From sequence record SRR22947727_1528: a DNA stretch of 37,791 bases, one strand, 5' to 3'. A program made the position numbers and the translations under genes. Below the pieces are notes generated by a model. That model ran no database searches, was not told the origin of the DNA, and saw only the letters and a program-made list of their open reading frames with translations. Below, piece after piece: positions 1,387 to 22,654 of the stretch (position 1 is the first letter of the stretch; the number at the start of each line of letters is the position of its first letter).

Positions 1387-1779
1387 CTCAAAAAGTTGAA
1401 ATGATTTCTCAACACCCATTACTCTGATAGCGTTTACGATTTCCATTTCTAATGTTTCTTCATCTGTGCTGACTTCATCCGCATTGTTTCCTCGTACCCT
1501 TGCAAGAAGTTCAAGAGCCTTGAGAGCAGTGTTTCCATTACCCGCATTACGAGCAACCTCATACTGCTTTTCGATTTCTGAGATAACATCAACATCTGTT
1601 GAGATCTCATTTGTGAGTTCGTCAATCCGTTCTTTGATTCGTTCATCTTGTAATAACCTATGGCCTTGGTTATGGGCAGAGGTCTCACTATATCCTGCAG
1701 TTGCTGCCGCCTTTGTAGCATTTCTGTGCAGGATATAGGCTTGACAAAACCGTTCTTGTTTATCATTAAGCAGCGACAT
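1321..1779 (-). CDS. terS: Terminase small subunit
   Basis: N-terminal LNDKQERFCQAY…NATKAAATAGYS…GHRLL helix-turn-helix typical of TerS; ALKALELLAR segment. Confidence 0.8.
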   Translation of the reverse strand: MSLLNDKQERFCQAYILHRNATKAAATAGYSETSAHNQGHRLLQDERIKERIDELTNEISTDVDVISEIEKQYEVARNAGNGNTALKALELLARVRGNNADEVSTDEETLEMEIVNAIRVMGVEKSFQLFELAFPEELTSTTDTEAGSDNDT

Positions 1780-4051
1780 CTAGCAACTCTGTGTAATACT
1801 TTTCCTTACCACGTTTAGATGCTTCCCAAACTGCAGCGGCAAGAGTACCTTCACCATGAAAATTAATTCCCATGTCCATCTGATCATTATCAAATAGCTT
1901 CTCACAGTCTTGTGCCATAGCTAGTAGTTCACCTGTAGTCCAGAACTTTTCACCACCTGTTTCTACTTGCATATACTTAGGTCGTTGCTTCTCTGTATCT
2001 GTTGTTTCTTTTTTCATTTCCTCTGTTATCTCACCAACAGAACAATCAAACCCAAACAGTTCAAAGTTTCTAAACCCTAGTGTGTGTGCAATGGCAATGG
2101 TACGCATAGCCGCACAAGTACCACCAGTGATAAGAGTAGAACCTTCTTCAATACCTGTTGACTTATCTACTACAATCTTATCTGTAACAGACATATCACG
2201 CAAGGCATCTGAGTAAGCTTGCCAACCTTTTACATTAGCACCCTTCTTGATAAGATGTTTAGTAACTGAAGGATCAGTCATAGATGCAACAAGCATAATT
2301 GTCTGGTCATCTACTTTGTTAAACAAATCTTTACGAACTACACCGTGTGTACTTACCCCATCAATAGGACGTGGATCTAGAATTACACAAGCGAATGGTT
2401 GAATACCTTGCTCCAAAAGTTTTGGATAGCTATGCTTAACACAGAATACTTTACCATTTGTTTTAGCGATACGATCCTTAACTTCCCACCAATCAGTACT
2501 AGTACCACCAGAGACAATGATGGCAGTCTCGTTGTTGATCTTACTTGTTTTGATCCAATCAAAATCTTTAATTAGTTTCTTATTCTCAAGAACATTATTA
2601 ATAATCTCTTCTTTAGGACGAGAATCTTTTGGTGTGACAACAATGGGAACACGTGTCAGTTCATCTGGTATCTTAGGTAGACCCTGCTTCATAGCTACAA
2701 AGCAAAGGTGTGTTACACCGCCACCAAGGACTGCATCAGAAGAAGGTAGAACAACCTTACCATATGCCGTAATCTCTTTCATAAGTTGGTTAACACCATC
2801 GTTGTCTGGCATACGTCCTTCTTTATCTTTAGAAAAGTAATCATCAAACACAAGAATAGGTACGTGCTTTAGATTTTCAAAGTCAGACTTGACTGTTTCG
2901 TATGAATGACCACCATCAATGTATGCAAAGTCTGCTTTCTTGATAGACTTGCAAGCCTTGAGTGTTTTCTTTGTGTCACCTTTATGTAGCTTGAACGTAA
3001 AGATTTTACCCATTGGTTTCATTTTACGTGTAAACTCTTCTAACCTAGCTTCTACAGCTTTCTTAGAATTGTGTGGCTTGCTGTTCAATTCAATATGATC
3101 TAATTCTGGGGTGGCTTCTTCAAACAAATCAAAGCCAGTGTAATGTACCTTATCTGTATGCTTGAATGCTGCAACTGCCATTTGAATAGCACGTCCACCA
3201 TTCCATGTACCAGTCTCTACAATATTGCTAGGCTTGTAGAAAGTAATAAGATCTAACAATTGCTTGTATCGTTTAGGACCATTAACATCAGGTGCCACAG
3301 TTGTATCGCTAACCTTTGATTTTAAATTACCTTTGAAGTGATCAAAGTATTCTGACAAAGGTGACTGAGCAAACGCTGCCAAACCTTTGACACCTTCAGA
3401 TAGGTTGTTAGTTACCATGCCGTGTGCTTTGTAGATATTAAGCAGACGTTCAAAGATAAACCCATCATGCCATTCACGGTAAGCAACTACTTCGCCAATA
3501 GTGTAAGCACCTCTAAGGTCAGCAAGGAGACTGCAAGTATTATGAATGCCCAAGTTAAAGCCCATGAAACTTGTTTCGCTATAGTCTGCATCTGTTCTTC
3601 CTAAGTGTACGAGGTCTGCTTTTTCAGGCAACCATTTTTTAAATTGTTTTACATCAAGCCGTTTTGTTGTTACCGTATCTGCATCTAACCAGATCATCCA
3701 AGTCTCGTGATCATCTTGCTCCATAATTTCAAAGGCAAGGTCAGTCATTGCATACACTTTATGACACCACTTGATTGCATCAAGCCGCCAATTGTACTGC
3801 ATCTTACCACCTTCCGTACCATCATGAAACTTCATACGCTCACGGTACTCAAGCATTTCTTCTACGTCATTAAGATTGCGATACTCAATGTTGTCAGCCA
3901 TAGGGGGAGACACACTTTCAATATCAAAGTCATGGTAATAGGCCACGAGTTTAAACTCTTTTGGGTTCCATTTATCAACCACGCTTTCCAGCATGTTCTT
4001 GGCGTACTCATGGTATCCACTCTCACTAAACGATGTAACAAAAGTATACAT
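1766..4051 (-). CDS. Three-domain fusion: GT-A glycosyltransferase + class I SAM methyltransferase + Maf/MptE-like transferase domain
   Basis: WLDADT DxD motif and WHDGF in the N-terminal domain; IVETGTWNG, YIDGGHSY and VFDDY in the middle; AIIVSGGTS, IQPFACVILDP and AHTLGFRNFELFGFD in the C-terminal domain. Confidence 0.75.
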   Translation of the reverse strand: MYTFVTSFSESGYHEYAKNMLESVVDKWNPKEFKLVAYYHDFDIESVSPPMADNIEYRNLNDVEEMLEYRERMKFHDGTEGGKMQYNWRLDAIKWCHKVYAMTDLAFEIMEQDDHETWMIWLDADTVTTKRLDVKQFKKWLPEKADLVHLGRTDADYSETSFMGFNLGIHNTCSLLADLRGAYTIGEVVAYREWHDGFIFERLLNIYKAHGMVTNNLSEGVKGLAAFAQSPLSEYFDHFKGNLKSKVSDTTVAPDVNGPKRYKQLLDLITFYKPSNIVETGTWNGGRAIQMAVAAFKHTDKVHYTGFDLFEEATPELDHIELNSKPHNSKKAVEARLEEFTRKMKPMGKIFTFKLHKGDTKKTLKACKSIKKADFAYIDGGHSYETVKSDFENLKHVPILVFDDYFSKDKEGRMPDNDGVNQLMKEITAYGKVVLPSSDAVLGGGVTHLCFVAMKQGLPKIPDELTRVPIVVTPKDSRPKEEIINNVLENKKLIKDFDWIKTSKINNETAIIVSGGTSTDWWEVKDRIAKTNGKVFCVKHSYPKLLEQGIQPFACVILDPRPIDGVSTHGVVRKDLFNKVDDQTIMLVASMTDPSVTKHLIKKGANVKGWQAYSDALRDMSVTDKIVVDKSTGIEEGSTLITGGTCAAMRTIAIAHTLGFRNFELFGFDCSVGEITEEMKKETTDTEKQRPKYMQVETGGEKFWTTGELLAMAQDCEKLFDNDQMDMGINFHGEGTLAAAVWEASKRGKEKYYTELLDVAA

Positions 4052-6900: not shown

Positions 6901-7236
6901 CTAGTGACCAAGAATAGCATTTATTCTCTTGCGAACAAAGTCTACCTCACCCGATTTAAGTACACGAAAAGCAAATTGTCTCATGTATTCAGGGTTTACA
7001 CCTGCACTATCACACACTTCAGTGAAGTCTTCTGCAGTTACACCGACAGATGCAAAGAACCATGCTATAGCCCTGTCTCTTTCTAGGACTGCATGTTCTG
7101 GTTCTCCATTGTATGAAGGCTTGGTTGCGTCTAGTAATGCTTGAAGGATAACCGCCAGATATAAAGTTTTCTCTGGGGATGATATACTTACTTGGGCATC
7201 ACTAGACAGTACGAGATTGATTTCCGTATCCATCAT
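6901..7236 (-). CDS. Conserved phage hypothetical protein
   Basis: LYLAVILQALLDA…AIAWF…DFTEVCDSAG pattern; coupled to the upstream endonuclease gene. Confidence 0.75.
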   Translation of the reverse strand: MMDTEINLVLSSDAQVSISSPEKTLYLAVILQALLDATKPSYNGEPEHAVLERDRAIAWFFASVGVTAEDFTEVCDSAGVNPEYMRQFAFRVLKSGEVDFVRKRINAILGH

Positions 7237-7640
7237 CAGGTAAGCCAGTCCTGTGGTATCTCTTCATTTAACTTACAGAACTTGAACTTATACTTATCAC
7301 ACCAATCTGCATACGTCATCTTACCACCCTTGTAAAGTTTACGGTAAGGGTTATCAAATATAAAACGTATATCAATATCAGGATGTTGTGATCGAATAAA
7401 CAGATGTTTCTTTCTGTCCTCTAGCATGAACCTGCCTTTGACTTCAAGTATAATACCATTTGGTAACAGGAAATCTGGTATGTATTTCTTGTTCTCAAAC
7501 CATTCATATGCAATGGGATATGGTTCATACTTGAAGTCAATCTTATTCTTGATTAGCTGTTCACTGCAGGAAAGTTCTGAGTTGCTTCTATACTTATGTG
7601 AGTATGAGTTTTTTCTCTGTCTCTTGGTAGTCTTCTTCAT
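7236..7640 (-). CDS. T7 gp3-like endonuclease I / Holliday junction resolvase
   Basis: YRSNSE, FKYE, YIPDF, LEVKGRF, DRKKH and TYADWC motifs. Confidence 0.9.
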   Translation of the reverse strand: MKKTTKRQRKNSYSHKYRSNSELSCSEQLIKNKIDFKYEPYPIAYEWFENKKYIPDFLLPNGIILEVKGRFMLEDRKKHLFIRSQHPDIDIRFIFDNPYRKLYKGGKMTYADWCDKYKFKFCKLNEEIPQDWLT

Positions 7641-13388: not shown

Positions 13389-13705
13389 TACCTATTATCT
13401 CCTGATCCTTGTAGTGTTCCCTTGCGCTGACGCTCTGCCAGCTTGTACATATTATCTTTTGCTACGTCCTCAAGGCTTACACCAATTACATCTGCCACTG
13501 CAGCCACATACCAAAGTACATCACCAAGTTCACTGATGAGTTCTTTTTCTTTCTCAACTGAGTGACCATCCCGAATGAACTTCTTTACCTTGTTAGCAAT
13601 CTCACCTGCCTCACCAGCCAATCCAAGGGTGGCATAGTATACACCCATGTCTGTTGGAAAGATAGCAGTTTTCATAGCCAACTTTTGATAATCATTCATG
13701 TTCAT
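13388..13705 (-). CDS. MazG-like nucleotide pyrophosphohydrolase
   Basis: LGLAGEAGEIANKVKK…ELGDVLWY motif. Confidence 0.9.
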   Translation of the reverse strand: MNMNDYQKLAMKTAIFPTDMGVYYATLGLAGEAGEIANKVKKFIRDGHSVEKEKELISELGDVLWYVAAVADVIGVSLEDVAKDNMYKLAERQRKGTLQGSGDNR

Positions 13706-14076
13706 GCTTGCACCTCTTTATTTTTCTCTAGCTTGTATTTTAAAACGGTTTCTTCTATAAATTCTTTTATATCTTTTTTATGCCAGTACCATACGGCAAA
13801 ACCTTTTACTCTCCATCGTCTATTTCTTAGTGAAATAATATACCTATTGTTAATAATAATTTCACCAGTACTATACATTTGAATAATAATATCATGTTCT
13901 AGTTCAAGAAGATCTATTAGTTTTGTTAGTCGTTGTGCTTCCCTAGCGTAGGCATCTTCTTCGCCTTTCTCTAATTCCAAGATAGCTTCCGCTAATTCTT
14001 TTTTAAGTCTTGGAAGATCATCTTTTGTTATCTTTGGGTTGTCCAAATATTTTGTAGAATACTTGTACTTAGACAT
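13702..14076 (-). CDS. Hypothetical protein
   Basis: 124 aa; AGGAG RBS; ATGA overlap with the next gene. Confidence 0.75.
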   Translation of the reverse strand: MSKYKYSTKYLDNPKITKDDLPRLKKELAEAILELEKGEEDAYAREAQRLTKLIDLLELEHDIIIQMYSTGEIIINNRYIISLRNRRWRVKGFAVWYWHKKDIKEFIEETVLKYKLEKNKEVQA

Positions 14077-14085
14077 ATTTTTCTC

Positions 14086-14292
14086 CTAGTTCATATGCTT
14101 ATGTTGAAAGTAAGTTCCGTATAGTTCACCCTCATCAAAGATTTGTAACATGTCATTTACAATGACGGCATCGTATCCCATAGTCTTGGCTAGATATGCC
14201 CTGTCTTCCATGAACTCTTTGATGTTGTCCACACCTTCAATGACCGATACTTTCTCTGCTGTTTCAAAATAAATCTTATGATCTCGCTGCAT
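14086..14292 (-). CDS. Hypothetical protein
   Basis: 68 aa; AAGGAG RBS. Confidence 0.7.
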   Translation of the reverse strand: MQRDHKIYFETAEKVSVIEGVDNIKEFMEDRAYLAKTMGYDAVIVNDMLQIFDEGELYGTYFQHKHMN

Positions 14293-14524
14293 CTAGTATC
14301 TCCTTCTTGACAAGTTCAAGCATAAAGATCATGTCAGGTGCGTCATTAACTGCAAGGCTCATAAACAACTGATCGTCTTTTGTCCAACCAAGAATCATTA
14401 CATCTCTAATGTCTTGCTCTAGTGCCTTACTGAATGCTTCCTCTACACTACGATCAATCTCTCTTTCATTATTGTCATCTACTACACTGAAAAGATTGAT
14501 AATTTTATTTTCATCATCCGACAT
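14276..14524 (-). CDS. Acidic hypothetical protein (start probably MSDDENK)
   Basis: Fits the gene packing; the ORF track extends it to 14551. Confidence 0.65.
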   Translation of the reverse strand: MSDDENKIINLFSVVDDNNEREIDRSVEEAFSKALEQDIRDVMILGWTKDDQLFMSLAVNDAPDMIFMLELVKKEILDAARS

Positions 14525-14723
14525 TATCAAGTTCCATCCACTCTCTTGCAAACTCTTTTGCTTCTTTATGTGTTGATCTTGTAAAGAAACCAGTTAGTTT
14601 ATTGTTACGGTATGTTTCAATGTGATATTCTTTTGATCCTCTGAAGTCTCTTCCTGGAATTTCAGATGCTTTTAGTTGTTCAGATAGTTCATACCATGCT
14701 TTGAATACCTTATATCTTTTCAT
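14514..14723 (-). CDS. Hypothetical protein
   Basis: GGAG before the ATG at 14723; ATGA overlap with the upstream gene. Confidence 0.6.
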   Translation of the reverse strand: MKRYKVFKAWYELSEQLKASEIPGRDFRGSKEYHIETYRNNKLTGFFTRSTHKEAKEFAREWMELDNVG

Positions 14724-14929
14724 CTCTCCACACCCATGACCCAATCTTCTGCCATGTTTTCCATGTACTGTTCTGAATGACCAGCCAAATTAAGTTCTTC
14801 AATGATGGCTGCGTCTTGTATCTTTACTATAGTATAGGAACCGTCCGGCTCTTTGAAGATGCTTGCTTTTCTATAGGAGCCATCACCCCTAGAGCAATCT
14901 TCATCACTATAGAACTCATGTAATAACAT
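14720..14929 (-). CDS. Hypothetical protein
   Basis: 69 aa; TAATG coupling; C-terminal HSEQYMENMAEDWVMG. Confidence 0.7.
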   Translation of the reverse strand: MLLHEFYSDEDCSRGDGSYRKASIFKEPDGSYTIVKIQDAAIIEELNLAGHSEQYMENMAEDWVMGVER

Positions 14930-15132
14930 TACTCAACATCTCCCTTACGTTCTACAATTTTAATAAACCTGCTGATACCACTCTGTGCTTTCTCTAAACT
15001 CTCGTGAATGTTATCAAGTAATTTACTTTCTGTCAAGGTCAAAGTGTTTGATGCGCTGATAGCTTTGTCAATTGCACTCTTAACTTTCTTGAAGTCTTCC
15101 ATCTTATTCATTACCTTAACTGTCATCTTCAT
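14929..15132 (-). CDS. Hypothetical helical protein
   Basis: 67 aa; AGGAG RBS. Confidence 0.65.
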   Translation of the reverse strand: MKMTVKVMNKMEDFKKVKSAIDKAISASNTLTLTESKLLDNIHESLEKAQSGISRFIKIVERKGDVE

Positions 15133-15403
15133 CTCCTAAATTAAACTTGAATTTAACTAAGTTATGTGCTTCTTCTAGGTCTTGCATCTCAACCATTGAC
15201 ACCATCCTCATGCCTCCCATGTCGTTGTACATTGCAGTTAGTAACACAGAAGTAAGTAACTTGTCCATGTCCTTTAATGCTTTCAACTGTGAAGGCTCAA
15301 GAAGATCAACGTGCTTCTGTTTGATTTTCTTTTCTTGCTCACGTTTCTTTTCCCAATAGGCCATGCGTTCATTATTCGACATGTTCTCATATTTCTTAGC
15401 CAT
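15116..15403 (-). CDS. Hypothetical protein
   Basis: 95 aa; AAGGA RBS. Confidence 0.7.
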   Translation of the reverse strand: MAKKYENMSNNERMAYWEKKREQEKKIKQKHVDLLEPSQLKALKDMDKLLTSVLLTAMYNDMGGMRMVSMVEMQDLEEAHNLVKFKFNLGDEDDS

Positions 15404-15542
15404 GTTGTTTATCCTTTTCAGCTAAACATTTTTCTAGGTTCTCGTGCAGTTCTGCAATACGAATGTATGCATCCTGCAAGCTCTTCTGTAGCTCATGAAT
15501 ATTATGCATGAGTATTTCTTTTTCTGTAATAACTTTACTCAT
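15396..15542 (-). CDS. Small coiled-coil protein, 48 aa, not in the ORF track (MSKVITEKEILMHNIHELQKSLQDAYIRIAEL…)
   Basis: Hand-translated; fills the gap and overlaps both neighbours by 8 nt. Confidence 0.6.
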   Translation of the reverse strand: MSKVITEKEILMHNIHELQKSLQDAYIRIAELHENLEKCLAEKDKQHG

Positions 15543-15717
15543 CCCATAACGCCTTGTTTATACTATCAACATAGTCGTTTGTATCTGCCATGATATCTTC
15601 TGCTTCTTCCTTGGCAAGTTTCTTTGCTTCCTTCGCATCATATCCTTCGTCAATGTATTGCTGATACAAATCCCGAAACAAACGCTTGCGATCTTTTTCC
15701 CATAGGTTGACAGTCAT
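15535..15717 (-). CDS. Small acidic hypothetical protein
   Basis: 60 aa; AAGGA RBS. Confidence 0.7.
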   Translation of the reverse strand: MTVNLWEKDRKRLFRDLYQQYIDEGYDAKEAKKLAKEEAEDIMADTNDYVDSINKALWDE

Positions 15718-15908
15718 AGTCCTAGTTCCTTTTTTAATTGATGTTTGTTTATCTCATCGAAATCTTTTAAGTAATCTTCAGTATCATTGAGGAAGGAATT
15801 GATTTCATCAATGTCGATTTCGTTTGCAGATACGGCTGCGACTGTCTCTACATAGTCAAGATCGGTTGCAGATATTTCATAGTGATTATTATATTTTCTT
15901 TTTGTCAT
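15714..15908 (-). CDS. Small acidic hypothetical protein
   Basis: 64 aa; AAAGGA RBS. Confidence 0.7.
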   Translation of the reverse strand: MTKRKYNNHYEISATDLDYVETVAAVSANEIDIDEINSFLNDTEDYLKDFDEINKHQLKKELGL

Positions 15909-15981
15909 GACATTATCCTTTCATTACCTGACAAAAATTAAACTTAGCATTCCTAATAGAGCGAACACCAACATAAATAGC

Positions 15982-16010
15982 ATCATACAATACATAATCC
16001 AATATGTCAA
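15982..16010 (-). promoter_or_regulatory. sigma70 promoter for the replication genes
   Basis: TTGACA-N17-TATGAT. Confidence 0.7.
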
Positions 16011-16023
16011 TTTTATTTTCTCC

Positions 16024-16052
16024 TTGACATCAAAATTTTCCAGGTGTATAAT
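16024..16052 (+). promoter_or_regulatory. Perfect sigma70 promoter, antisense to the early arm
   Basis: TTGACA (16024-29), N17, TATAAT (16047-52). Confidence 0.8.
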
Positions 16053-16089
16053 CCTCTTTAGAGAAAGAAAAAGATAATAAAAGATAATA

Positions 16090-16245
16090 CTAGTTACCTT
16101 TATAGCCTTTATAGTCCTCTATTACGGGTGGGAGTTTCTTTCTGTTGAAAGAACCCTTACCTTTCTTAGGTGGCACGACACTAGCCCTACGCCTTGATAG
16201 GGCAATTGCTCTAGCGATAGGATTGATAGGGCTAATGCGTTTCAT
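16090..16245 (-). CDS. ArfA-like (alternative ribosome rescue factor A-like) peptide, 51 aa, not in the ORF track
   Basis: MKRISPINPIARAIALSRRRASVVPPKKGKGSFNRKKLPPVIEDYKGYKGN; KKGKGS[YF]xRK is the ArfA signature; AAGGAG RBS 7 nt upstream. Confidence 0.75.
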   Translation of the reverse strand: MKRISPINPIARAIALSRRRASVVPPKKGKGSFNRKKLPPVIEDYKGYKGN

Positions 16246-16248
16246 TTG

Positions 16249-16527
16249 TCACTCCTTTGGAATAATCTTTGAAGGTTTAAACTTTGACCGTTGGTTTTGC
16301 TGCCACTCTTTAAATGAAGGTTCCATGTTGTTCATGGCTTGAAACTTTAGTTTGTCTAGCAGTTCAGCAACAACTAACTCATCCTCGTACTGTCGCACAA
16401 ACTTATCGAATGGGTGTACTCCTTCTGGATCATTCATCCTGTCTTCCAGTGCTAACCCTGAAGCATATTCAATCAAACCCTCTAACTGTTCTGGTGTATT
16501 AGCAGGTGTTAAGTCTAACTTAGGCAT
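16249..16527 (-). CDS. Hypothetical protein
   Basis: 92 aa; GAGGT RBS. Confidence 0.7.
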   Translation of the reverse strand: MPKLDLTPANTPEQLEGLIEYASGLALEDRMNDPEGVHPFDKFVRQYEDELVVAELLDKLKFQAMNNMEPSFKEWQQNQRSKFKPSKIIPKE

Positions 16528-16530
16528 GGC

Positions 16531-16677
16531 TCACCTCATTTCTTCGTTGATGTAGTACACTAAGGAATCATCGTCAATCAGATCCGTAAGGTATTGATGG
16601 ATTGATTCCTTCAATGCGTCTTCTTCATGTCCAATGTCATCGAACTCTAGGTAAATTGTTACTGTTGTTTTAGGCAT
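16531..16677 (-). CDS. Small acidic protein, 48 aa, not in the ORF track (MPKTTVTIYLEFDDIGHEED…)
   Basis: Hand-translated; fills the gap between flanking genes. Confidence 0.6.
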   Translation of the reverse strand: MPKTTVTIYLEFDDIGHEEDALKESIHQYLTDLIDDDSLVYYINEEMR

Positions 16678-16831
16678 CGTCTTCATCCTCAAACATAATT
16701 GCCCCACCGATTAAATCCAAATCTTCATCTATAAAAAATTTGATTTTAATAGAGCCTTCATCATCACCTATTTGTAACCACTTGTCAGAAGGGCAGCTAT
16801 TCAACCAATTAAAGAAATCTTCTCTACTCAT
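16670..16831 (-). CDS. Small acidic protein (start probably MSREDFFNWL)
   Basis: The ATG follows the upstream gene's stop; the ORF track extends it to 16912. Confidence 0.6.
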   Translation of the reverse strand: MSREDFFNWLNSCPSDKWLQIGDDEGSIKIKFFIDEDLDLIGGAIMFEDEDDA

Positions 16832-16832
16832 A

Positions 16833-17159
16833 TCAATCCATCCTTGTAATGTAGTAACCGTCAGGCGTAGGAAGTGCAGTGATTGCGGACTCATAGAAGT
16901 ATACGTCACCATCCTTTGTCTTCATCTTGGCAATCCAAGGAAGGTCATCGTCATCTTCATGTTCGCTGCAATAGTTTCCATCCTCAGTTACATAGCCACC
17001 AAACTTGTACAGTTCACCGAAGCCATAGCTGTCCTGCATATGCCCCACCAAGTCATCCTTCTCTCGTAAATTATACTCCATCACCCACATAGGTAACAAC
17101 CCTAGTGCCTCTTGGATTTGTTCACGAGGTGCATCAAATACTTTACTATTAATATCCAT
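16833..17159 (-). CDS. Hypothetical protein
   Basis: 108 aa; AGGAG RBS; C-terminal ITRMD. Confidence 0.75.
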   Translation of the reverse strand: MDINSKVFDAPREQIQEALGLLPMWVMEYNLREKDDLVGHMQDSYGFGELYKFGGYVTEDGNYCSEHEDDDDLPWIAKMKTKDGDVYFYESAITALPTPDGYYITRMD

Positions 17160-17170
17160 GTCTGTGTCTC

Positions 17171-17362
17171 CTAATCACACGATGTTTGTCTTGAAATGAT
17201 CACTGTATATACATCAGAACCATCACGTTTGTCAACCCCTTCATTGATAATTCTTGTGTCGTATCCTAGTCGAGGGTAACTGTTGAAGTAACTTGTGATC
17301 TTCTGGTCTAAGATTTCTTTTGTTGGTGCTTCCATGTGTTCCTCTATCGTCTTCATTACCAT
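17171..17362 (-). CDS. Hypothetical protein
   Basis: 63 aa; YFNSYPRLGYDT…SRQTSCD; GAGGT RBS. Confidence 0.7.
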   Translation of the reverse strand: MVMKTIEEHMEAPTKEILDQKITSYFNSYPRLGYDTRIINEGVDKRDGSDVYTVIISRQTSCD

Positions 17363-17766
17363 GACCTCTCCATAATATGTAGTAACTCATTCATTTCCTT
17401 ACGAGAATATGTTTTGTTATCCTCCATTCCTTCGATCATAAACTTAGTTACCTTTGCAATTTTGTGAATCCTGGAAATTCTAATCTTCCAAACGTGACGC
17501 TTGAATGAGATAGATGTGTACAAGTTACCACCAATTACACCAAAGATACCTGCCTTTCCATGTCTCCGCAGCTTCTTGTACTCTAGCAATCGAAACCTGC
17601 CTAAACCTACGTCACCTTCCTTGATCACATCCCAAGGCTTGTTGATGTAAGGTGGTGCTACCCAATCACTGGTAACCTGAACAGGTATAATCTTCCAGCT
17701 TGTTCCGTCACGCTCATTGATCTTTTCAATTCGGCTTTTCATTTTCTCGCTTACTGTACCACTCAT
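17356..17766 (-). CDS. Hypothetical protein (start probably MSGTVSEK)
   Basis: ATGA overlap with the methylase stop codon. Confidence 0.65.
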   Translation of the reverse strand: MSGTVSEKMKSRIEKINERDGTSWKIIPVQVTSDWVAPPYINKPWDVIKEGDVGLGRFRLLEYKKLRRHGKAGIFGVIGGNLYTSISFKRHVWKIRISRIHKIAKVTKFMIEGMEDNKTYSRKEMNELLHIMERSW

Positions 17767-18713
17767 AGTTCCATTCCTTTCATGATGTGTGTGATAACGT
17801 CCACTGTCCAACCATTGCCCAGCATCTTGTATCGTTGTGTATTGCTGACGTGTGCAGTGTACCCATCAGGTACAGTTTGCAGTCGCTCACACTCAAGCGG
17901 TGTCAGCTTACGCCATGTCATGTCTTCGACAACTACACTGTCTTTGTATACTGTCGATAAGCAATTTGTTTTATCGTCCTCTCTCACCTCGACACGAGGC
18001 TGTAATGGTATGCTCTTGTCGTAGTCTTTGCGTGTACCATTCTCGTCCAGCCTACGGTTCACTATGCGTCCACCCTTTATGTCTAAGTCAAACACAAGTT
18101 GCCGCCTATGTTTCTCAAAGTATGATTTGAGATTACCACCCTTGAAATAGTTAGCATCAATACAATGTGCCTTGTCTCTATCAACTATTCCTTCTTCCAG
18201 TATGTCACGCAACATAATACCTTTGTCTTCTGGCACACCATCTAATGGAATGTTTGTCCAGTAGTATCGTTGTCGGTTCTGTGCAGACACAAGACTGCTA
18301 TTGATAAAGATAGGCTCGACACCTAGTGCCTCAGTGATCACGTCCATGCTTTCCTGTTTCATTCGTACATTTTCAAGCAGGAAATACTTTGGCTTGCACT
18401 CTTTCAAGAGGCGTACATATTCCCAGAATAGTTTGCTTCGGGGATCGTCAAAATTTAATTGCTTGCCAGCAAAGCTGAAGCCTTGGCATGGACTACCACC
18501 GATCAATAGATCAATCTTGATGCCTTCAAATGTCTCAGGCCACATAACATCCCTAACATCACCAAGGTGTATGGTATTGGGATAGTTAGCCTTTGTTACT
18601 TGGATGGCGTACTTGTCCACTTCGGCTGCAAAATAGTGGTCAGGCTTTATGCCTAGCTTATCTAGTGCAATCTGACCACAAGACATTCCATCGAACAGTG
18701 ATAGTACATTCAT
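17763..18713 (-). CDS. dcm: C5 DNA cytosine methyltransferase (orphan)
   Basis: SLFDG (motif I), GGSPCQGFS (IV), LENV (VI), QNRQRYY (VIII), ECERLQ (IX), LGNGW (X). Confidence 0.95.
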   Translation of the reverse strand: MNVLSLFDGMSCGQIALDKLGIKPDHYFAAEVDKYAIQVTKANYPNTIHLGDVRDVMWPETFEGIKIDLLIGGSPCQGFSFAGKQLNFDDPRSKLFWEYVRLLKECKPKYFLLENVRMKQESMDVITEALGVEPIFINSSLVSAQNRQRYYWTNIPLDGVPEDKGIMLRDILEEGIVDRDKAHCIDANYFKGGNLKSYFEKHRRQLVFDLDIKGGRIVNRRLDENGTRKDYDKSIPLQPRVEVREDDKTNCLSTVYKDSVVVEDMTWRKLTPLECERLQTVPDGYTAHVSNTQRYKMLGNGWTVDVITHIMKGMEL

Positions 18714-18716
18714 TTT

Positions 18717-18833
18717 TTATTCTCCATACAATTCTTTTGATTGTTCTTCTGTCAGGTCAAACCTTCCACATGGGGATTTGTATCTATCAGTAATCCAAAC
18801 CCCCTCAAACTCAAAACCATCTTCGTCATTCAT
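18717..18833 (-). CDS. Small acidic protein, 38 aa, not in the ORF track (MNDEDGFEFEGVWITDRYKSPCGRFDL…)
   Basis: TAATG coupling to the upstream gene; fills the gap. Confidence 0.55.
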   Translation of the reverse strand: MNDEDGFEFEGVWITDRYKSPCGRFDLTEEQSKELYGE

Positions 18834-19207
18834 TACGCAACATCCTTTCCGAAAAATCTTTGGGCTTGCTCTACTGTTATTCTGTATCTGTTGTTGCTTT
18901 CACTTATACCTAGCTTCTGAATTGTAAAGGGTGTTTTCCTTGCTCTGGTATTGAAGCCGACAAGACTGTATTTGTCACCCCTAACTGTTGCAATTTTACT
19001 AGTGTCCAAGTCATATGTATTGGCGTATTTTTCAAGGTCTTTTTCCTCTACAGATGGCGCACCAGCATCTTTTATCACCACCTTAAATGTAACTTGCGTG
19101 GTATCATAGCTTGCATTGCCTACATCAATTTCAAAACCTTCAATGCCATGTTCAGTAAATAAGTTGTTTAGTTTTTCACGAAGAATTTTTGCTGTTGTTC
19201 TATCCAT
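18833..19207 (-). CDS. Hypothetical protein
   Basis: 124 aa; YSLVGFNTRARKTPF segment. Confidence 0.75.
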   Translation of the reverse strand: MDRTTAKILREKLNNLFTEHGIEGFEIDVGNASYDTTQVTFKVVIKDAGAPSVEEKDLEKYANTYDLDTSKIATVRGDKYSLVGFNTRARKTPFTIQKLGISESNNRYRITVEQAQRFFGKDVA

Positions 19208-19349
19208 TTTCTTGCATCTCTCTTTTCATTTCGATTAATTCACCAACTGATCTGCCTGACATACCAGATAGTTCTTCTAATGTCAACACACTTGTATCGT
19301 CTAGCATGTCTATCAAATCTTCGTCCATCATATCGAGTTTCATTTGCAT
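19200..19349 (-). CDS. Small acidic HTH-like protein, 49 aa, not in the ORF track
   Basis: MQMKLDMMDEDLIDMLDDTSVLTLEELSGMSGRSVGELIEMKREMQENG; overlaps both neighbours. Confidence 0.55.
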   Translation of the reverse strand: MQMKLDMMDEDLIDMLDDTSVLTLEELSGMSGRSVGELIEMKREMQENG

Positions 19350-19567
19350 TTGTATGCCCCTTCCATCATGTCAATTCCCACAAGCAAACCCTCCAGATAT
19401 CGGAACATTTCCCTAGCTGGGACACGCCCATATATTATAGTCGAACCTTTGTTGTTTGTTAATTCCCAACCACCATAGCAGGCTTTATTGCAAAGGCCAT
19501 AGCTTCTGCCCAGCCTTTGGTTAATTCTTTGCAATCTATTTTCCAGCATATGTTTTGTAACTCTCAT
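19340..19567 (-). CDS. Hypothetical early protein
   Basis: 75 aa; AGGAGGT RBS. Confidence 0.75.
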   Translation of the reverse strand: MRVTKHMLENRLQRINQRLGRSYGLCNKACYGGWELTNNKGSTIIYGRVPAREMFRYLEGLLVGIDMMEGAYKCK

Positions 19568-19578
19568 TATCTTACCTC

Positions 19579-19755
19579 CTAAGTTGATGCAGGATTTTCA
19601 ATTTGTGACATATGAAGCCTACACATCACATCAAAAATTTCTTCTATTGTTTCACGACACCCTAAAAATTTTCCATGTCTAACTAGGTTCCAGCCGTCAG
19701 GGTCTTCTAATATTTCAAATCCAAACGGCATGTTTTTTATGCTTATGTATTCCAT
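19579..19755 (-). CDS. Hypothetical early protein, 58 aa, not in the ORF track (MEYISIKNMPFGFEILEDPDGW…)
   Basis: Hand-translated; AGGAGGT RBS. Confidence 0.55.
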   Translation of the reverse strand: MEYISIKNMPFGFEILEDPDGWNLVRHGKFLGCRETIEEIFDVMCRLHMSQIENPAST

Positions 19756-19875
19756 TTCATAACCTCCTAAGTTGCAGCTCTCGCCTATAAATTCCAGGAT
19801 TTTTTATCCTACTGAATCATGAAGAAAATCATGACCACCACAAATTCAAATATCAATACTTCCATTTAACAACAC

Positions 19876-20202
19876 TCACATTCTGTGATCTGTGACTAGT
19901 TTACCATTCCGGCAAACATCATCTTCATTCAATTCTTCTTTTGGATATTCCCAAAAACTCCACATGCCACCATTGGCATAGTTTAAATGCTCAACCAATT
20001 CTAGACTGTTAGCGCACCACACAGAATAGTCACCAAGATATTGAACAGTGCCATCGTTATAGATACGCAGGGGTTGCGTTTCAAATATTCCATCCATTAA
20101 ATTTGTTATGGATAAAAAGAATTGCCCTTCCTTTGACCAATACAAGGGGATTTTCACACATCCCTTATGATCTAGTGGGTTGTCATATGATTTTACTATC
20201 AT
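19876..20202 (-). CDS. Hypothetical early protein
   Basis: GAGGT RBS and ATGA overlap support a start at 20202; the ORF track extends it to 20220. Confidence 0.65.
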   Translation of the reverse strand: MIVKSYDNPLDHKGCVKIPLYWSKEGQFFLSITNLMDGIFETQPLRIYNDGTVQYLGDYSVWCANSLELVEHLNYANGGMWSFWEYPKEELNEDDVCRNGKLVTDHRM

Positions 20203-20402
20203 TCTTTCACCTCTTTCCATTCACCATTTTCATATTTGACAATTCGGGCAGTATATCCAAGGTCAAGAATATCTTTGCATTTTACACCAGCCCAGCCAAT
20301 CGTGACATATGTCTTGTCACCATAGCAATTGACCCATCCAGATTTCATTTTCAATTCAACTCTGAAGGTATCATAACCATCATTATAATTTATTGCAGAC
20401 AT
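20199..20402 (-). CDS. Hypothetical early protein
   Basis: 67 aa; GAGGT RBS. Confidence 0.65.
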   Translation of the reverse strand: MSAINYNDGYDTFRVELKMKSGWVNCYGDKTYVTIGWAGVKCKDILDLGYTARIVKYENGEWKEVKE

Positions 20403-20411
20403 TATATCACC

Positions 20412-21011
20412 TCATTTACCTAGTATGAAATCAACATGCATTTGCGAGACGTGTTCACCATCACGATATTTTGTAGGGTGTACCGTTGCCAGATAGTCGC
20501 ACCAGCTATCCCATAGGTGTTCACACCCGCCCAGCTTTTCGCATGTGTCGATATATAATTCTGCTTTTTTACGCATCAAAGCATATGTAGCATTAGCACC
20601 ATACTTGAACGTGCTGGCAGATAATCCGAACCGTTGCAGGTTATGACTATCTAAACAGCCTATTTCGCCAAGAGCCAATTGGATTACGAAACCTGCTTTT
20701 GCTAGGTGAAGATTAGGGCATGATGCCACATATAAAAGCAGATCGGGAAGATCAATTTTGCCAGCTTGATAGTCAATAAATTTTGCATGAATATCTTTTT
20801 TATTCCGCTGGATATATTTATAGGCTTTTGCCTTTACTGCATTGTTCAGATAACGGCTATCCAAACCATTTTGTTTAACGTCAATATTCATATTACCAAC
20901 CAAATACCAATGGGTGCGAATAGAATTAATGACGCAAATCATAGTATCAGCAACGGCTGCAGGGCTTGCTGCGCAGGCCTGGCCTATTTTTGTTTGATGA
21001 TTTTTGAACAT
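20412..21011 (-). CDS. HhH-GPD superfamily (Ogg/EndoIII-like) DNA glycosylase-like protein
   Basis: CPNLHLAKAGFVIQL…GCLDSHNLQR resembles the helix-hairpin-helix Lys plus the LDxH catalytic Asp. Confidence 0.6.
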   Translation of the reverse strand: MFKNHQTKIGQACAASPAAVADTMICVINSIRTHWYLVGNMNIDVKQNGLDSRYLNNAVKAKAYKYIQRNKKDIHAKFIDYQAGKIDLPDLLLYVASCPNLHLAKAGFVIQLALGEIGCLDSHNLQRFGLSASTFKYGANATYALMRKKAELYIDTCEKLGGCEHLWDSWCDYLATVHPTKYRDGEHVSQMHVDFILGK

Positions 21012-21030
21012 TTCAAATCCTTTTGTTTCA

Positions 21031-21346
21031 AGTTAATATAGGCTTGCAATGGATTATTTAAAACCCATTGCAGTCTAATCAATAACCCCTAACAACCTTG
21101 CGAGTAACTTTCAAAAGCCAATGGCGTTTTACGAATTGGCCTGATTTTTTATTACGTCCAACGTGGAAATATGCCCGATTAGTCGAAACATATCCGCCTT
21201 TTGTAAAAAATGCCAAGCGTCCATCACCAATTGGATAATGGTTATTGCGTGTATCTGTCAGAAAATTAAGCATAATAGACCTCATGTATATGAAAGGAAA
21301 CACTAGTCGCCTAGTGCCTTGCAAACATTGCAAGCCTATATTAACT
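21031..21346. repeat. Perfect 21-bp inverted repeat flanking one small ORF
   Basis: AGTTAATATAGGCTTGCAATG (21031-21051) and CATTGCAAGCCTATATTAACT (21326-21346). Confidence 0.9.
21079..21273 (-). CDS. Small basic early protein (start probably MLNFLTDTR)
   Basis: GAGGT RBS before 21273; the ORF track extension to 21381 crosses hairpins. Confidence 0.6.
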   Translation of the reverse strand: MLNFLTDTRNNHYPIGDGRLAFFTKGGYVSTNRAYFHVGRNKKSGQFVKRHWLLKVTRKVVRGY

Positions 21347-21402
21347 CTCAACATTCGGGCGGGTCTTTTGCAGACACACAAGCCCTATATATGGACTAGG
21401 TA

Positions 21403-21603
21403 CTACCTAGCGTGCGCTTTTTTCACTCTTAGCCTTTCCGCAATTGTTGTCATTGGCTCATTGGGCTTTGCCAAGTTTTGGCATACATAGCCCCTATGTG
21501 ATAGGCTTTCAAATTGCCCCATTGGACTAGGTATGTTATGAGATAGGCTTTGCCTTACTCTTAAAGCTTTCCGTCTGTTTGGGTTTAATCTTCGCCTTGC
21601 CAT
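21403..21603 (-). CDS. First early ORF, Arg-rich protein
   Basis: MARRRLNPNRRKALRVRQ; lies directly downstream of a candidate promoter. Confidence 0.55.
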   Translation of the reverse strand: MARRRLNPNRRKALRVRQSLSHNIPSPMGQFESLSHRGYVCQNLAKPNEPMTTIAERLRVKKAHAR

Positions 21604-21640
21604 TGTCTTAATCGCTTTTCTGTTTCGTTCTTGTGATTAT

Positions 21641-21669
21641 GTTATGACCGAAAAAAAAAGCAGCGTAAA
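21641..21669 (-). promoter_or_regulatory. Candidate early promoter
   Basis: TTTACG-N17-CATAAC. Confidence 0.45.
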
Positions 21670-21679
21670 GCATAAAAAA

Positions 21680-21692
21680 TAAGTCATTGATT
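21680..21692 (-). promoter_or_regulatory. IHF consensus site
   Basis: AATCAATGACTTA matches WATCAANNNNTTR, with an upstream A-rich tract. Confidence 0.6.
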
Positions 21693-21733
21693 TTATTGGA
21701 TTTTATTTTGGGTGATTTTTGGAAAACTGGAAT

Positions 21734-21770
21734 GTTCCTGTTTCGTTCCTAGTTCGTTCCTGTTTCGTTC
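21734..21770 (+). promoter_or_regulatory. Tandem alphaproteobacterial LexA (SOS) boxes
   Basis: GTTC at 21734, 21745, 21756 and 21767, giving three overlapping GTTC-N7-GTTC boxes. Confidence 0.75.
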
Positions 21771-21824
21771 TGGTTAATCATGGGAATAATCATTTACACC
21801 TTATAATATATATAAAGGCGTTTT

Positions 21825-21890
21825 AATGTGCTAACACGCTAACACAAATCCCAGCTGGTCGTTTCAATGTGATAGCACGCTAAAACAAAT
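21825..21890. repeat. 25-bp direct repeat x2 with an imperfect internal palindrome
   Basis: AATGTGCTAACACGCTAACACAAAT and AATGTGATAGCACGCTAAAACAAAT (22/25 identical). Confidence 0.85.
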
Positions 21891-21956
21891 AGATAGACTG
21901 TGACATAAATGCTGCAGGTGTTGTAAAAATGTCACACTATACAGATCTTTCGTATG

Positions 21957-22050
21957 ATCAAACCTTGTTAGACTAATCAAACCTTGTTAGGCTTGGCTGT
22001 AAATGTTAGGCATGGCTTAATTTGTTAGGCAGGGGGTGGCTAGTTAGTCT
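21957..22050. repeat. Degenerate 19-bp tandem repeat x5 with a GTTAG core
   Basis: GTTAG at 21967, 21986, 22005, 22024 and 22043. Confidence 0.85.
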
Positions 22051-22103
22051 TGTCTTTATTATATAGGGCAGCCTAAGTGTCAAAAAAATGACGCTTCCAT
22101 AGT

Positions 22104-22118
22104 GAACAAATCGTGAAC
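22104..22118 (-). promoter_or_regulatory. LexA (SOS) box in the opposite orientation
   Basis: GAACAAATCGTGAAC on the + strand = GAAC-N7-GAAC. Confidence 0.7.
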
Positions 22119-22345
22119 AAAAAAAAAGTCAAGCAAAATCTTGTCAATAATTTGACGTATGATGTAGGGAAAAATAGATGAAATAAAAAAACACGGATAC
22201 CTATAGGGTATATTAGCGTTCCTAATAGACATGGAGGACAGCCGGGGGCTTAATAGTCTATATAGTTCTTTAGAACTCTTTAGAGTTTGTTACCATTATT
22301 TATTATTATTACTATCTTTTACTAACTCTTAATAACTATATAGGT

Positions 22346-22374
22346 ATTATAACATTCACTTGTATGTTTGTCAA
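22346..22374 (-). promoter_or_regulatory. Perfect sigma70 promoter firing leftward into the non-coding gap
   Basis: TTGACA-N17-TATAAT with a TGn extended -10. Confidence 0.8.
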
Positions 22375-22389
22375 TAGCTATGGTATACT
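22360..22389 (+). promoter_or_regulatory. Promoter for the packaging genes
   Basis: TTGTAT-N18-TATACT with a TGn extended -10. Confidence 0.6.
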
Positions 22390-22453
22390 TTTATTTGTCA
22401 ACCAGTACATTTTTTAAAAGGTGTGATAAAAATACAACACATAAGGATTAATT

Positions 22454-22654
22454 ATGTTTGAAGCGTTAATTTTAGTTTGTCTAGTCTCTACAGAATGTGT
22501 AGAATTGACAGACACTAGAGGTTTGCACAAAACAGAAATGTCTTGTAAGGCTAGAATAGCCGAGATGGTTAGTGATTTTGTTTCTGATGAAAGAACACCT
22601 CCGGTTATAGGAATAAAATATAAATGTCAAATTAAAAAAGGTACACCTATTTAA
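22454..22654 (+). CDS. Small Cys-containing hypothetical protein
   Basis: 66 aa; AAGGA RBS; TAATG coupling to terL. Confidence 0.7.
   Translation: MFEALILVCLVSTECVELTDTRGLHKTEMSCKARIAEMVSDFVSDERTPPVIGIKYKCQIKKGTPI

Follow-up and report, generated by a model that had tools for sequence, protein, structure and literature searches.

Ribosomes that stall at the end of truncated messages can be released by small bacterial rescue factors such as ArfA, and an open reading frame (ORF) of 51 codons in a stretch of phage DNA raises the question of whether phages bring such a factor of their own. The stretch, referred to below as the window, comprises 37,791 nucleotides of sequence record SRR22947727_1528. 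A preliminary description of this DNA had reported a 51-amino-acid ORF with a good ribosome binding site (RBS) that contains NPIARAI...RASVVPPKKGKGSFNRKK, and this was borne out by the coordinates, the translation and the AAGGAG sequence ahead of the gene (Table 1). The ORF starts with ATG and is closed by an in-frame TAG at 16090-16092. Because the TGA stop (16249-16251) of an upstream 92-codon ORF is located 3 nt before this ATG, in between the AAGGAG and the start codon, the ORF is packed into an operon. The AGGAG core was kept in all six of the six aligned relatives. The ORF product has a pI of 11.46, with 14 Lys and Arg residues versus 2 Asp and Glu residues, and within this small and very basic protein residues 27-37 read KKGKGSFNRKK, corresponding to the ArfA-type motif KKGKGSYxRK. 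The pattern KKGKGS[FY] occurred a single time in the six-frame translation of the window, where 1e-4 occurrences were expected from the residue composition, and was found in 0 of 300 mononucleotide shuffles of the window; its presence in the ORF is not a product of chance.

Table 1. Position and basis of the features of the ArfA-like locus (window coordinates).
Feature	Position	Strand	Basis
ArfA-like ORF, 51 aa	16090..16245	minus	ORF list, Pfam ArfA match, viral family, codon-level selection
Shine-Dalgarno sequence AAGGAG	16252..16257	minus	6 nt 5' of the ATG; direct sequence reading
Codons 8-17, NPIARAIALS	16195..16224	minus	N-terminal family signature (N, P and A nearly invariant) and predicted short helix
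Codons 23-37, VVPPKKGKGSFNRKK	16135..16179	minus	Putative counterpart of the RF2-adjacent strand of ArfA, followed by the tunnel-entering segment (Pfam, hhalign)
Codons 38-51 and stop, variable tail LPPVIEDYKGYKGN	16090..16134	minus	A1 alignment; predicted to be disordered

Relatives of the ORF proved to be widespread among viral sequences. A word-indexed search revealed seven of them, one bearing the JGI name 'stalled ribosome alternative rescue factor ArfA', and an exhaustive HMMER search with the alignment of these seven relatives yielded 80 cluster representatives at E<=1e-3 (10 of which at E<=1e-10). Scanning of IMG/VR gave 189 pattern matches, 96 of them encoding a relative, nearly all of 43-60 codons, and the best 80 of these 96 loci were taken further. 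The exact ORF protein itself was present on 23 public contigs. In a 45-sequence alignment of the phage family (A2), with a mean column identity of 30%, residues G29 and K30 were invariant, while N8, P9, A11, K27, K28, G31, S32, Y33 and R35 were conserved in at least 90% of the sequences, the consensus reading xxIKxINPVAKAxAxxRRRxxVVPPKKGKGSYxRKK. In the tail, the copy number of a YKG unit differed among close relatives, which exist as 51-aa and 54-aa forms (A1 alignment).

At the codon level, 43 distinct cores of 30 codons taken from viral contigs were compared, and 57% of the codon pairs that differed were synonymous. Comparison of 40 cores with the window yielded amino acid identities of 63-80% (leaving out the near-identical copies L002 and L004) and nucleotide identities of 60-73%, and the amino acid identity equalled or exceeded the nucleotide identity in all but three of these 40 cores (L058, L064 and L069, which fell short by 1-3 points). 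Specifically, the core of relative L010 was 61% identical to that of the window in nucleotides versus 77% in amino acids, with 17 synonymous versus 7 non-synonymous codon changes. This synonymous excess, together with amino acid identities at or above the nucleotide identities, indicates that the ORF frame is under purifying selection, and the ORF is a real protein-coding gene of a large viral family. Its shortness, and a Pfam score under the family cut-off (see below), might still hint towards a chance ORF or a non-functional remnant, but with an RBS, relatives at 96 viral loci, the synonymous excess, the 1e-4 motif expectation and the exact protein on 23 contigs, such an origin is extremely improbable. 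To the extent that sequence data can decide this question, the conservation described here already refutes a chance ORF.

An HMM search against the ArfA family (PF03889), which had been put forward as a check on the ArfA assignment, had a split outcome. Taken alone, the ORF product scored 22.8 bits (E 6.4e-5), which is below the 25.5-bit gathering cut-off of Pfam ArfA, the sole Pfam family that it matched, and the match was limited to residues 21-37 (profile positions 25-41 of 44). Taken as a family, 43 of the 45 members matched Pfam ArfA at E<=0.01, with a best value of 5.7e-10. Moreover, the preliminary description had named a lack of similarity beyond the short motif as grounds for rejecting its assignment, and profile alignments did reveal similarity beyond this motif. 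A2 aligned by hhalign with 12 enterobacterial ArfA sequences over 31 columns (94.5%, E 7.6e-8), with residues 12-42 of the window protein facing residues 17-48 of E. coli ArfA and one gap; this enterobacterial set is narrow (80-93% identity), consisting of close relatives from a search with E. coli ArfA, which was used because only 3 matches, and thus too few sequences, were obtained when 151 genomes of the class to which G002 belongs were surveyed with Pfam ArfA. Alignment of the phage family with the short ArfA-like proteins of Pelagibacterales described below extended over 36 columns, or about the whole length of the latter (98.9%, E 1.6e-17). In E. coli ArfA (N14, K33), in the Pelagibacterales proteins and in the ORF (N8, K27) alike, KKGKG begins 19 residues after the conserved Asn, and with this Asn as anchor the N-terminal signature NPIARAIALS aligned with residues 14-23 of E. 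coli ArfA.

In the ESM Atlas, 27 of the 30 feature matches to the ORF were ArfA-named clusters, the top score being 0.93. Because of the family-level profile matches, the bridge formed by the Pelagibacterales proteins and these ESM Atlas neighbours, we took homology to ArfA as established, and the alignments make it very probable that the ORF product is a divergent ArfA homologue whose likeness extends beyond the motif. Other collections were searched as well. NCBIfam contained no match to the ORF, and PHROGs returned only phrog_37108 (function not known) at E 0.017. A phmmer search of PDB sequences with the single ORF found no ArfA chain, and the A1 profile reached ArfA chains at E 0.6-2.6, through the motif alone. 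Pfam DUF7230 matched neither the ORF (E<=10) nor the 45 family members (E<=0.01). In the phage collection, megablast with positions 14000-18000 and tblastn with the ORF gave no match, the 51-aa low-complexity sequence being a weak query.

The preliminary description had also called the peptide unannotated, and this is true only in part, as five of the eight related clusters that were looked up carry the JGI ArfA name. Furthermore, a 2025 paper refers to gp30 of pelagiphage HTVC027P as ArfA by virtue of its Pfam domain (PMC12753301), and g10 of the Citromicrobium phage RXM is annotated as ArfA (PMC8953757). With JGI-named relatives and with gp30 so called in PMC12753301, a phage ArfA is not new at the level of annotation. 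A full-text literature search found no functional or biochemical test of any phage ArfA. The gp30 protein of this cultured pelagiphage, which is listed as a hypothetical protein in GenBank and whose exact sequence is found on 505 public contigs, matched the profile of the phage family at E 1.6e-11 (40.3 bits). It combines an NPVAK element with a KPKKGRGSF motif and, like the ORF product, scores below the Pfam ArfA cut-off (20.2 bits). It differs from the ORF product by a 24-residue N-terminal extension and by a Tyr at the position of Phe25 of E. coli ArfA. Its gene adjoins the small terminase gene, whereas the ORF is located in the replication block, and the terminases of HTVC027P and the window phage are 37.8% identical.

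The closest cellular relatives of the ORF that we found were short proteins of Pelagibacterales (SAR11), marine Alphaproteobacteria. When prokaryotes were scanned at one genome per species with the single pattern PKKGKGSY and a 24-sequence alignment, 52 loci were confirmed, 46 of which were labelled Pelagibacter, Pelagibacteraceae or Pelagibacterales, a share that is biased because only this one pattern was used. The Pelagibacterales proteins are 36-45 aa long (consensus MKKRNxxAKDLFSxKYKKRIVKPKKGKGSYxRKK) and aligned with E. coli ArfA over 32 columns without gaps (hhalign, 95.7%, E 9.8e-9), and against Pfam ArfA three of them reached 26.1-33.6 bits, above the cut-off of 25.5. The gene order was identical in all five loci examined. 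At one locus, Pfam identified an OmpR-type regulator, a PfkB kinase, an HhH-GPD glycosylase, DapB and DnaJ as neighbours, and the stop codon of the OmpR-type regulator gene overlaps the start of the ArfA-like gene. These relatives are host genes and not prophage debris. In a separate observation, a match in a metagenome-assembled genome labelled 'Cellvibrionaceae' (L108) lay amid phage-type genes (exonuclease, nucleotidyltransferase and cytidyltransferase/NUDIX).

A survey of 151 genomes of the order Pelagibacterales with Pfam ArfA gave matches in 91 at E<=1e-3 (90 of 150 when G237, flagged as unpublished, is left out) and in 42 of the 151 over the cut-off. This result is at odds with the zero count reported by a 2024 survey with nucleotide profiles, which lists arfA in 0 of 2,376 Alphaproteobacteria (PMC11633108). 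One Pelagibacterales genome contained genes for both RF1 (with PET) and RF2 (with SPF); no third RF-1-domain gene was found in this genome, which is incomplete and hence provides no proof that ArfB is absent. The RF2 frame carries a Trp in a GWG context, which may correspond to the switch-loop Trp319 of E. coli RF2. The Pelagibacterales proteins share with the ORF product the start of the core (N-x-x-A-(K/R)), equal spacing, the P-KKGKGSY motif and a stop codon of their own. They differ from it in having Tyr or Phe at the Phe25 position (Y16 being nearly invariant), in a tail that ends 13-15 residues in, in having four instead of seven residues before the conserved Asn, and in the location of their genes in a conserved housekeeping neighbourhood.

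In its general layout, E. coli ArfA (YhdL; PF03889) resembles the ORF product as well, both being small and basic, with KKGKGS(Y/F)xRK, an Asn 19 residues upstream of this motif and an R-x-x-V-(V/E) stretch ahead of it. As described in PMC5378476, residues 31-48 of E. coli ArfA occupy the mRNA tunnel, and truncation at Asn47, which leaves 15 residues counted from K33, does not abolish activity. The tail of the ORF product comprises 25 residues counted from K27 and, judged by this E. coli requirement, is long enough to fill the tunnel. The same source describes residues 2-16 of E. coli ArfA as a minidomain (Ile11, Ala18) of which Thr7 and Lys8 bind h44, and has Leu19, Leu24 and Phe25 bind RF2 (Trp319, Val198 and Phe217), including a contact between Phe25 and Trp319 (PMC5378476). 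The N-terminus of the ORF product is six residues shorter than that of E. coli ArfA, and because only 7 residues, versus 13, precede the conserved Asn, counterparts of Thr7 and Lys8 are absent.

When anchored on this Asn, the ORF product has Arg18 and Arg19 at the positions of Leu24 and Phe25, and among 35 Asn-anchored representatives the Phe25 position was taken by R or K in 27 and by Y in three. Neither the hydrophobic RF2 patch nor the N-terminal minidomain of E. coli ArfA could be recognized in the ORF product. The one-residue gap introduced by hhalign places Ala13 of the ORF product on Ala18 of E. coli ArfA, a position that is ambiguous. The KH motif (K44-H45), which is located in the tunnel and common to E. 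coli ArfA and BrfA according to PMC8012679, corresponds in position to L38-P39 in the ORF product, and KH was present within the first 20 tail residues of 4 of 64 representatives. AlphaFold2, supplied with the family alignment, predicted a single helix (residues 9-17) with the remainder disordered at a mean pLDDT of 70.6, block means being 89 for residues 1-10 and 85 for residues 11-20. In this model, one helix amid disorder fits a protein that would fold only on its target.

Because several of the residues through which ArfA contacts RF2 or the ribosome have changed in the phage protein, the possibility of an inhibitory mimic, raised in the preliminary description next to that of a rescue factor, was kept alive. 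The protein, although derived from ArfA, might then bind the tunnel without activating RF2. As a competitor that occupies the vacant mRNA tunnel of stalled ribosomes, it would block the tmRNA-SmpB and ArfA of the host, so that phage products could be kept untagged or a rescue-reliant defence could be blunted; alternatively, it might recruit another release factor. In line with this, the tunnel-binding motif is the best-conserved part of the ORF family, residues that activate RF2 in E. coli are altered (Phe25 replaced by Arg, a much shorter minidomain and no KH), and the host-type proteins of Pelagibacterales keep Tyr or Phe at the Phe25 position whereas most phage forms do not. Moreover, trans-translation can reportedly be inhibited with a synthetic version of the SmpB tail, and ArfT is reported to be a small factor that uses both RF1 and RF2 (PMC8012679). 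However, the NPxA(K/R)A helix is conserved like the tail and aligns with the region of ArfA that meets RF2, while it would be superfluous for a pure plug. The Tyr of HTVC027P gp30 indicates in turn that the change at the Phe25 position is not shared by the whole family, and a gain for the phage from blocked rescue would be hypothetical. On balance, a mere tunnel binder seems unlikely to us.

The same sequence features could mean that the phage family has a variant mechanism. It is conceivable, yet rather doubtful, that the family represents a re-tooled ArfA that has kept the tunnel-sensing tail and serves as a competitor or works with a different release-factor partner. On this view, an Arg triplet would have replaced the aromatic residue that contacts RF2, KH and the larger part of the N-terminal minidomain would have been given up, and the protein would no longer be subject to tmRNA feedback. 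That it would act unlike the short ArfA of the host itself is, again, a tentative suggestion. Should it nevertheless be true, marine phages would be actively reshaping ribosome quality control in those bacteria that are most abundant in the ocean.

Escape from feedback would concern the way in which ArfA is normally kept in check. The arfA gene of E. coli, as summarized in PMC8012679, is 72 codons long, and a stem-loop within it gives rise to non-stop mRNA, as a result of which tmRNA keeps ArfA low. Unlike E. coli arfA, the ORF is phage-borne, has its own stop codon and has no internal hairpin. The fold of its 3' part was no better than that of shuffles (z 0.22), and no terminator-like site was found within 15500-16800. 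Among 53 distinct loci of the family, a terminator-like hairpin was present inside the ORF in none and after the stop codon in 10. An Rfam search over 15400-16900 gave no match. Expression from a non-stop mRNA is a regulatory trait and not a prerequisite for activity. On the opposite strand, a putative antisense transcript folded no better than shuffles (z -0.09), and an antisense promoter was rejected as a family-wide feature, being present in only 3 of 51 distinct downstream regions, all in the window's own clade.

Weighing these data, we favor the reading of the ORF as a phage-supplied rescue factor of the ArfA type that would operate without tmRNA feedback, to which we assign a probability of roughly 0.58. 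By analogy with E. coli ArfA we infer that the protein binds the ribosome, recruits RF2 and benefits the phage. In the mechanism that we propose, the basic segment from about P25 onwards (PPKKGKGSFNRKK...) would enter the mRNA tunnel left empty when a 70S ribosome stalls at the 3' end of a truncated message. The RF2 of the host would then be engaged by the V-V stretch together with the short helix, with the short N-terminal helix (NPIARAIAL) helping RF2 to open and to hydrolyse the peptidyl-tRNA, and the freed ribosomes could rejoin the pool during infection. Because the gene ends in an ordinary stop codon and contains neither a hairpin nor a terminator, the factor would be made constitutively from the early/replication operon, outside of the tmRNA feedback that limits bacterial ArfA. 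BrfA of Bacillus and ArfT of Francisella are comparable to this proposed mechanism in being small, release factor-dependent proteins with a basic tail in the tunnel, but in PMC8012679 they are described as unrelated to ArfA in sequence, and ArfA was the one Pfam family that the ORF matched. According to the same review, ArfA-RF2 pairs are adapted to their own species.

If the ORF product is active in this way, many marine phages would bring their own release factor for stalled ribosomes, free of the tmRNA brake on bacterial ArfA. This might in turn indicate that non-stop ribosomes are a real bottleneck during infection, for instance after breakdown of host mRNA or in the face of an RNase-type defence. 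Moreover, the forms of 36-51 residues constitute a natural minimal ArfA that could help to define which parts of ArfA are needed.

As to its genomic setting, the window derives from a tailed phage of about 57 kb, in which the ORF lies amid early and replication genes. The nearest record is a viral contig of 57,282 bp, estimated to be 97% complete, which encodes a protein 98% identical to the ORF product. On the minus strand, PHROGs calls comprised a ribonucleotide reductase, a family-A DNA polymerase, a primase/helicase, MazG, a Cas4-type exonuclease and two DNA methyltransferases, and those on the plus strand a large terminase, a portal and a major head protein. The ORF is embedded in a run of small minus-strand genes with a C5 DNA methyltransferase (17763-18713) on one side and MazG and the primase/helicase on the other, and similar types of neighbours surround the relatives at nine other viral loci that were scanned. 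Pfam yielded two matches among 32 window proteins, both distant from the ORF: a phage endonuclease I at 7236-7640 and a methyltransferase at 1766-4051. The terminase shares 37.8-39.4% identity with its counterparts in Pelagibacter phages HTVC023P and HTVC027P and 39.1% with the one in a lake phage, and the G+C content of the window is about 40%. The phage host is likely a marine or estuarine bacterium, perhaps an alphaproteobacterium.

This setting also bears on whether the ORF might encode a small basic protein that binds nucleic acids or ribosomes in some other role, for instance in shutting off translation on vacant ribosomes or in binding RNA or DNA, and that has only ancestry or the motif in common with ArfA. 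The protein is indeed very basic and mostly disordered, and it is encoded in an early gene block, the site of host-takeover genes. Its context lends no support to a role in translation, with none of the 27 small neighbouring ORFs (13702-22654) having a Pfam match, and the window holds no tRNA or tmRNA gene. Against such another role, the homology to ArfA extends over 31-36 columns with a fixed spacing, and the residues that do not vary coincide exactly with those of the ArfA core. The retention of KKGKGSYxRK at a mean column identity of 30% would likewise be unexpected for generic basic peptides, and we consider a role unconnected to that of ArfA to be quite improbable.

Transcription of the ORF was looked at in RNA libraries over 15500-17200, where parts without cover are uninformative. 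Contigs from two runs of different studies overlapped the ORF. In one run (X14), contigs spanning 15973-16140 and 16116-16296 together covered the whole ORF, and in the other (X17) a contig spanning 15979-16127 covered its 3' end only. Because their strand is not given and DNA in the library is a possible source, these contigs are a weak hint of ORF transcription. For the relative in the cultured pelagiphage, the infection time course in PMC12753301 reports gp30 transcripts of HTVC027P to be high both early (3 h) and late (12-15 h) in infection.

The intergenic region downstream of the ArfA-like ORF holds two back-to-back sigma-70 consensus promoters (see table). The minus-strand promoter serves the downstream genes, and the plus-strand promoter is directed into the ArfA-like ORF, in antisense orientation. 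Across six aligned relatives, three of which share only 70-73% identity with the window, the hexamers of both promoters were kept and the spacers were variable. Of 51 distinct family loci, just 3 had the antisense promoter, and these belong without exception to the window's clade; the putative antisense RNA was not predicted to fold better than shuffled sequences. The same intergenic region also contains a 28-codon ORF that returned no match in a Pfam scan; three diverged relatives (L008, L066 and L009) keep it as a hydrophobic peptide, and its product may be a small membrane protein.

Features of the window considered in this part
Feature	Coordinates	Strand	Remarks
761-aa protein	1766-4051	minus	methyltransferase domain and MptE-like domain
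Intergenic region	15909-16089		holds the promoter pair at 15982-16052
28-codon ORF	15924-16010	minus	TTG start; AAGGAG 9 nt before start; very hydrophobic
Sigma-70 consensus promoter	16010-15982	minus	11/12 match to consensus
Sigma-70 consensus promoter	16024-16052	plus	TTGACA-17-TATAAT; 12/12 match
92-codon gene	16249-16527		immediately upstream of ArfA-like ORF

In four related contigs that are otherwise 93% identical (L004-L007), the 92-codon gene is replaced by unrelated sequence, which is local mosaicism; despite this swap, the ArfA-like gene and the intergenic region downstream of it are unbroken. Further upstream, contigs from two RNA libraries (X14 and X16, salt-marsh samples from the same year) joined position 16674 to 16829, skipping 154 bases. 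Instead of RNA processing, this junction in the RNA-library contigs may reflect a deletion in some strains.

Within the ArfA-like family, the copy number of a C-terminal YKG unit (window 16090-16134; cluster representative P0001) differs among near-identical relatives, and the 51-aa and 54-aa forms of the protein correspond to this copy number. A sub-variant without the G-K-G-S residues, whose representatives include P0025, P0037, P0044 and P0055, carries the motif (V/I)(V/I)(P/K)NKKKYNRKK. An ORF of this sub-variant is found in the Pelagibacter phage HTVC023P (L149:1501-1623), where the match to the family profile is weak (E 8.9e-4).

An ArfA-like gene of 36-45 codons was also found on Pelagibacterales chromosomes (L084-L135, e.g. 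L091:3989-4105), in a conserved neighbourhood of housekeeping genes; it often begins with a TTG or GTG that overlaps the stop codon of a gene for an OmpR-type regulator. At E<=1e-3, 91 of 151 Pelagibacterales genomes carried the gene, and 42 of the 151 scored above Pfam's cut-off; a published survey records arfA in 0 of 2,376 Alphaproteobacteria (PMC11633108). In a MAG labelled Cellvibrionaceae, the ArfA-like ORF of contig L108 is surrounded by phage-type genes (exonuclease, nucleotidyltransferase, cytidyltransferase/NUDIX and phosphatase), and the same genome encodes another ArfA elsewhere that passes Pfam.
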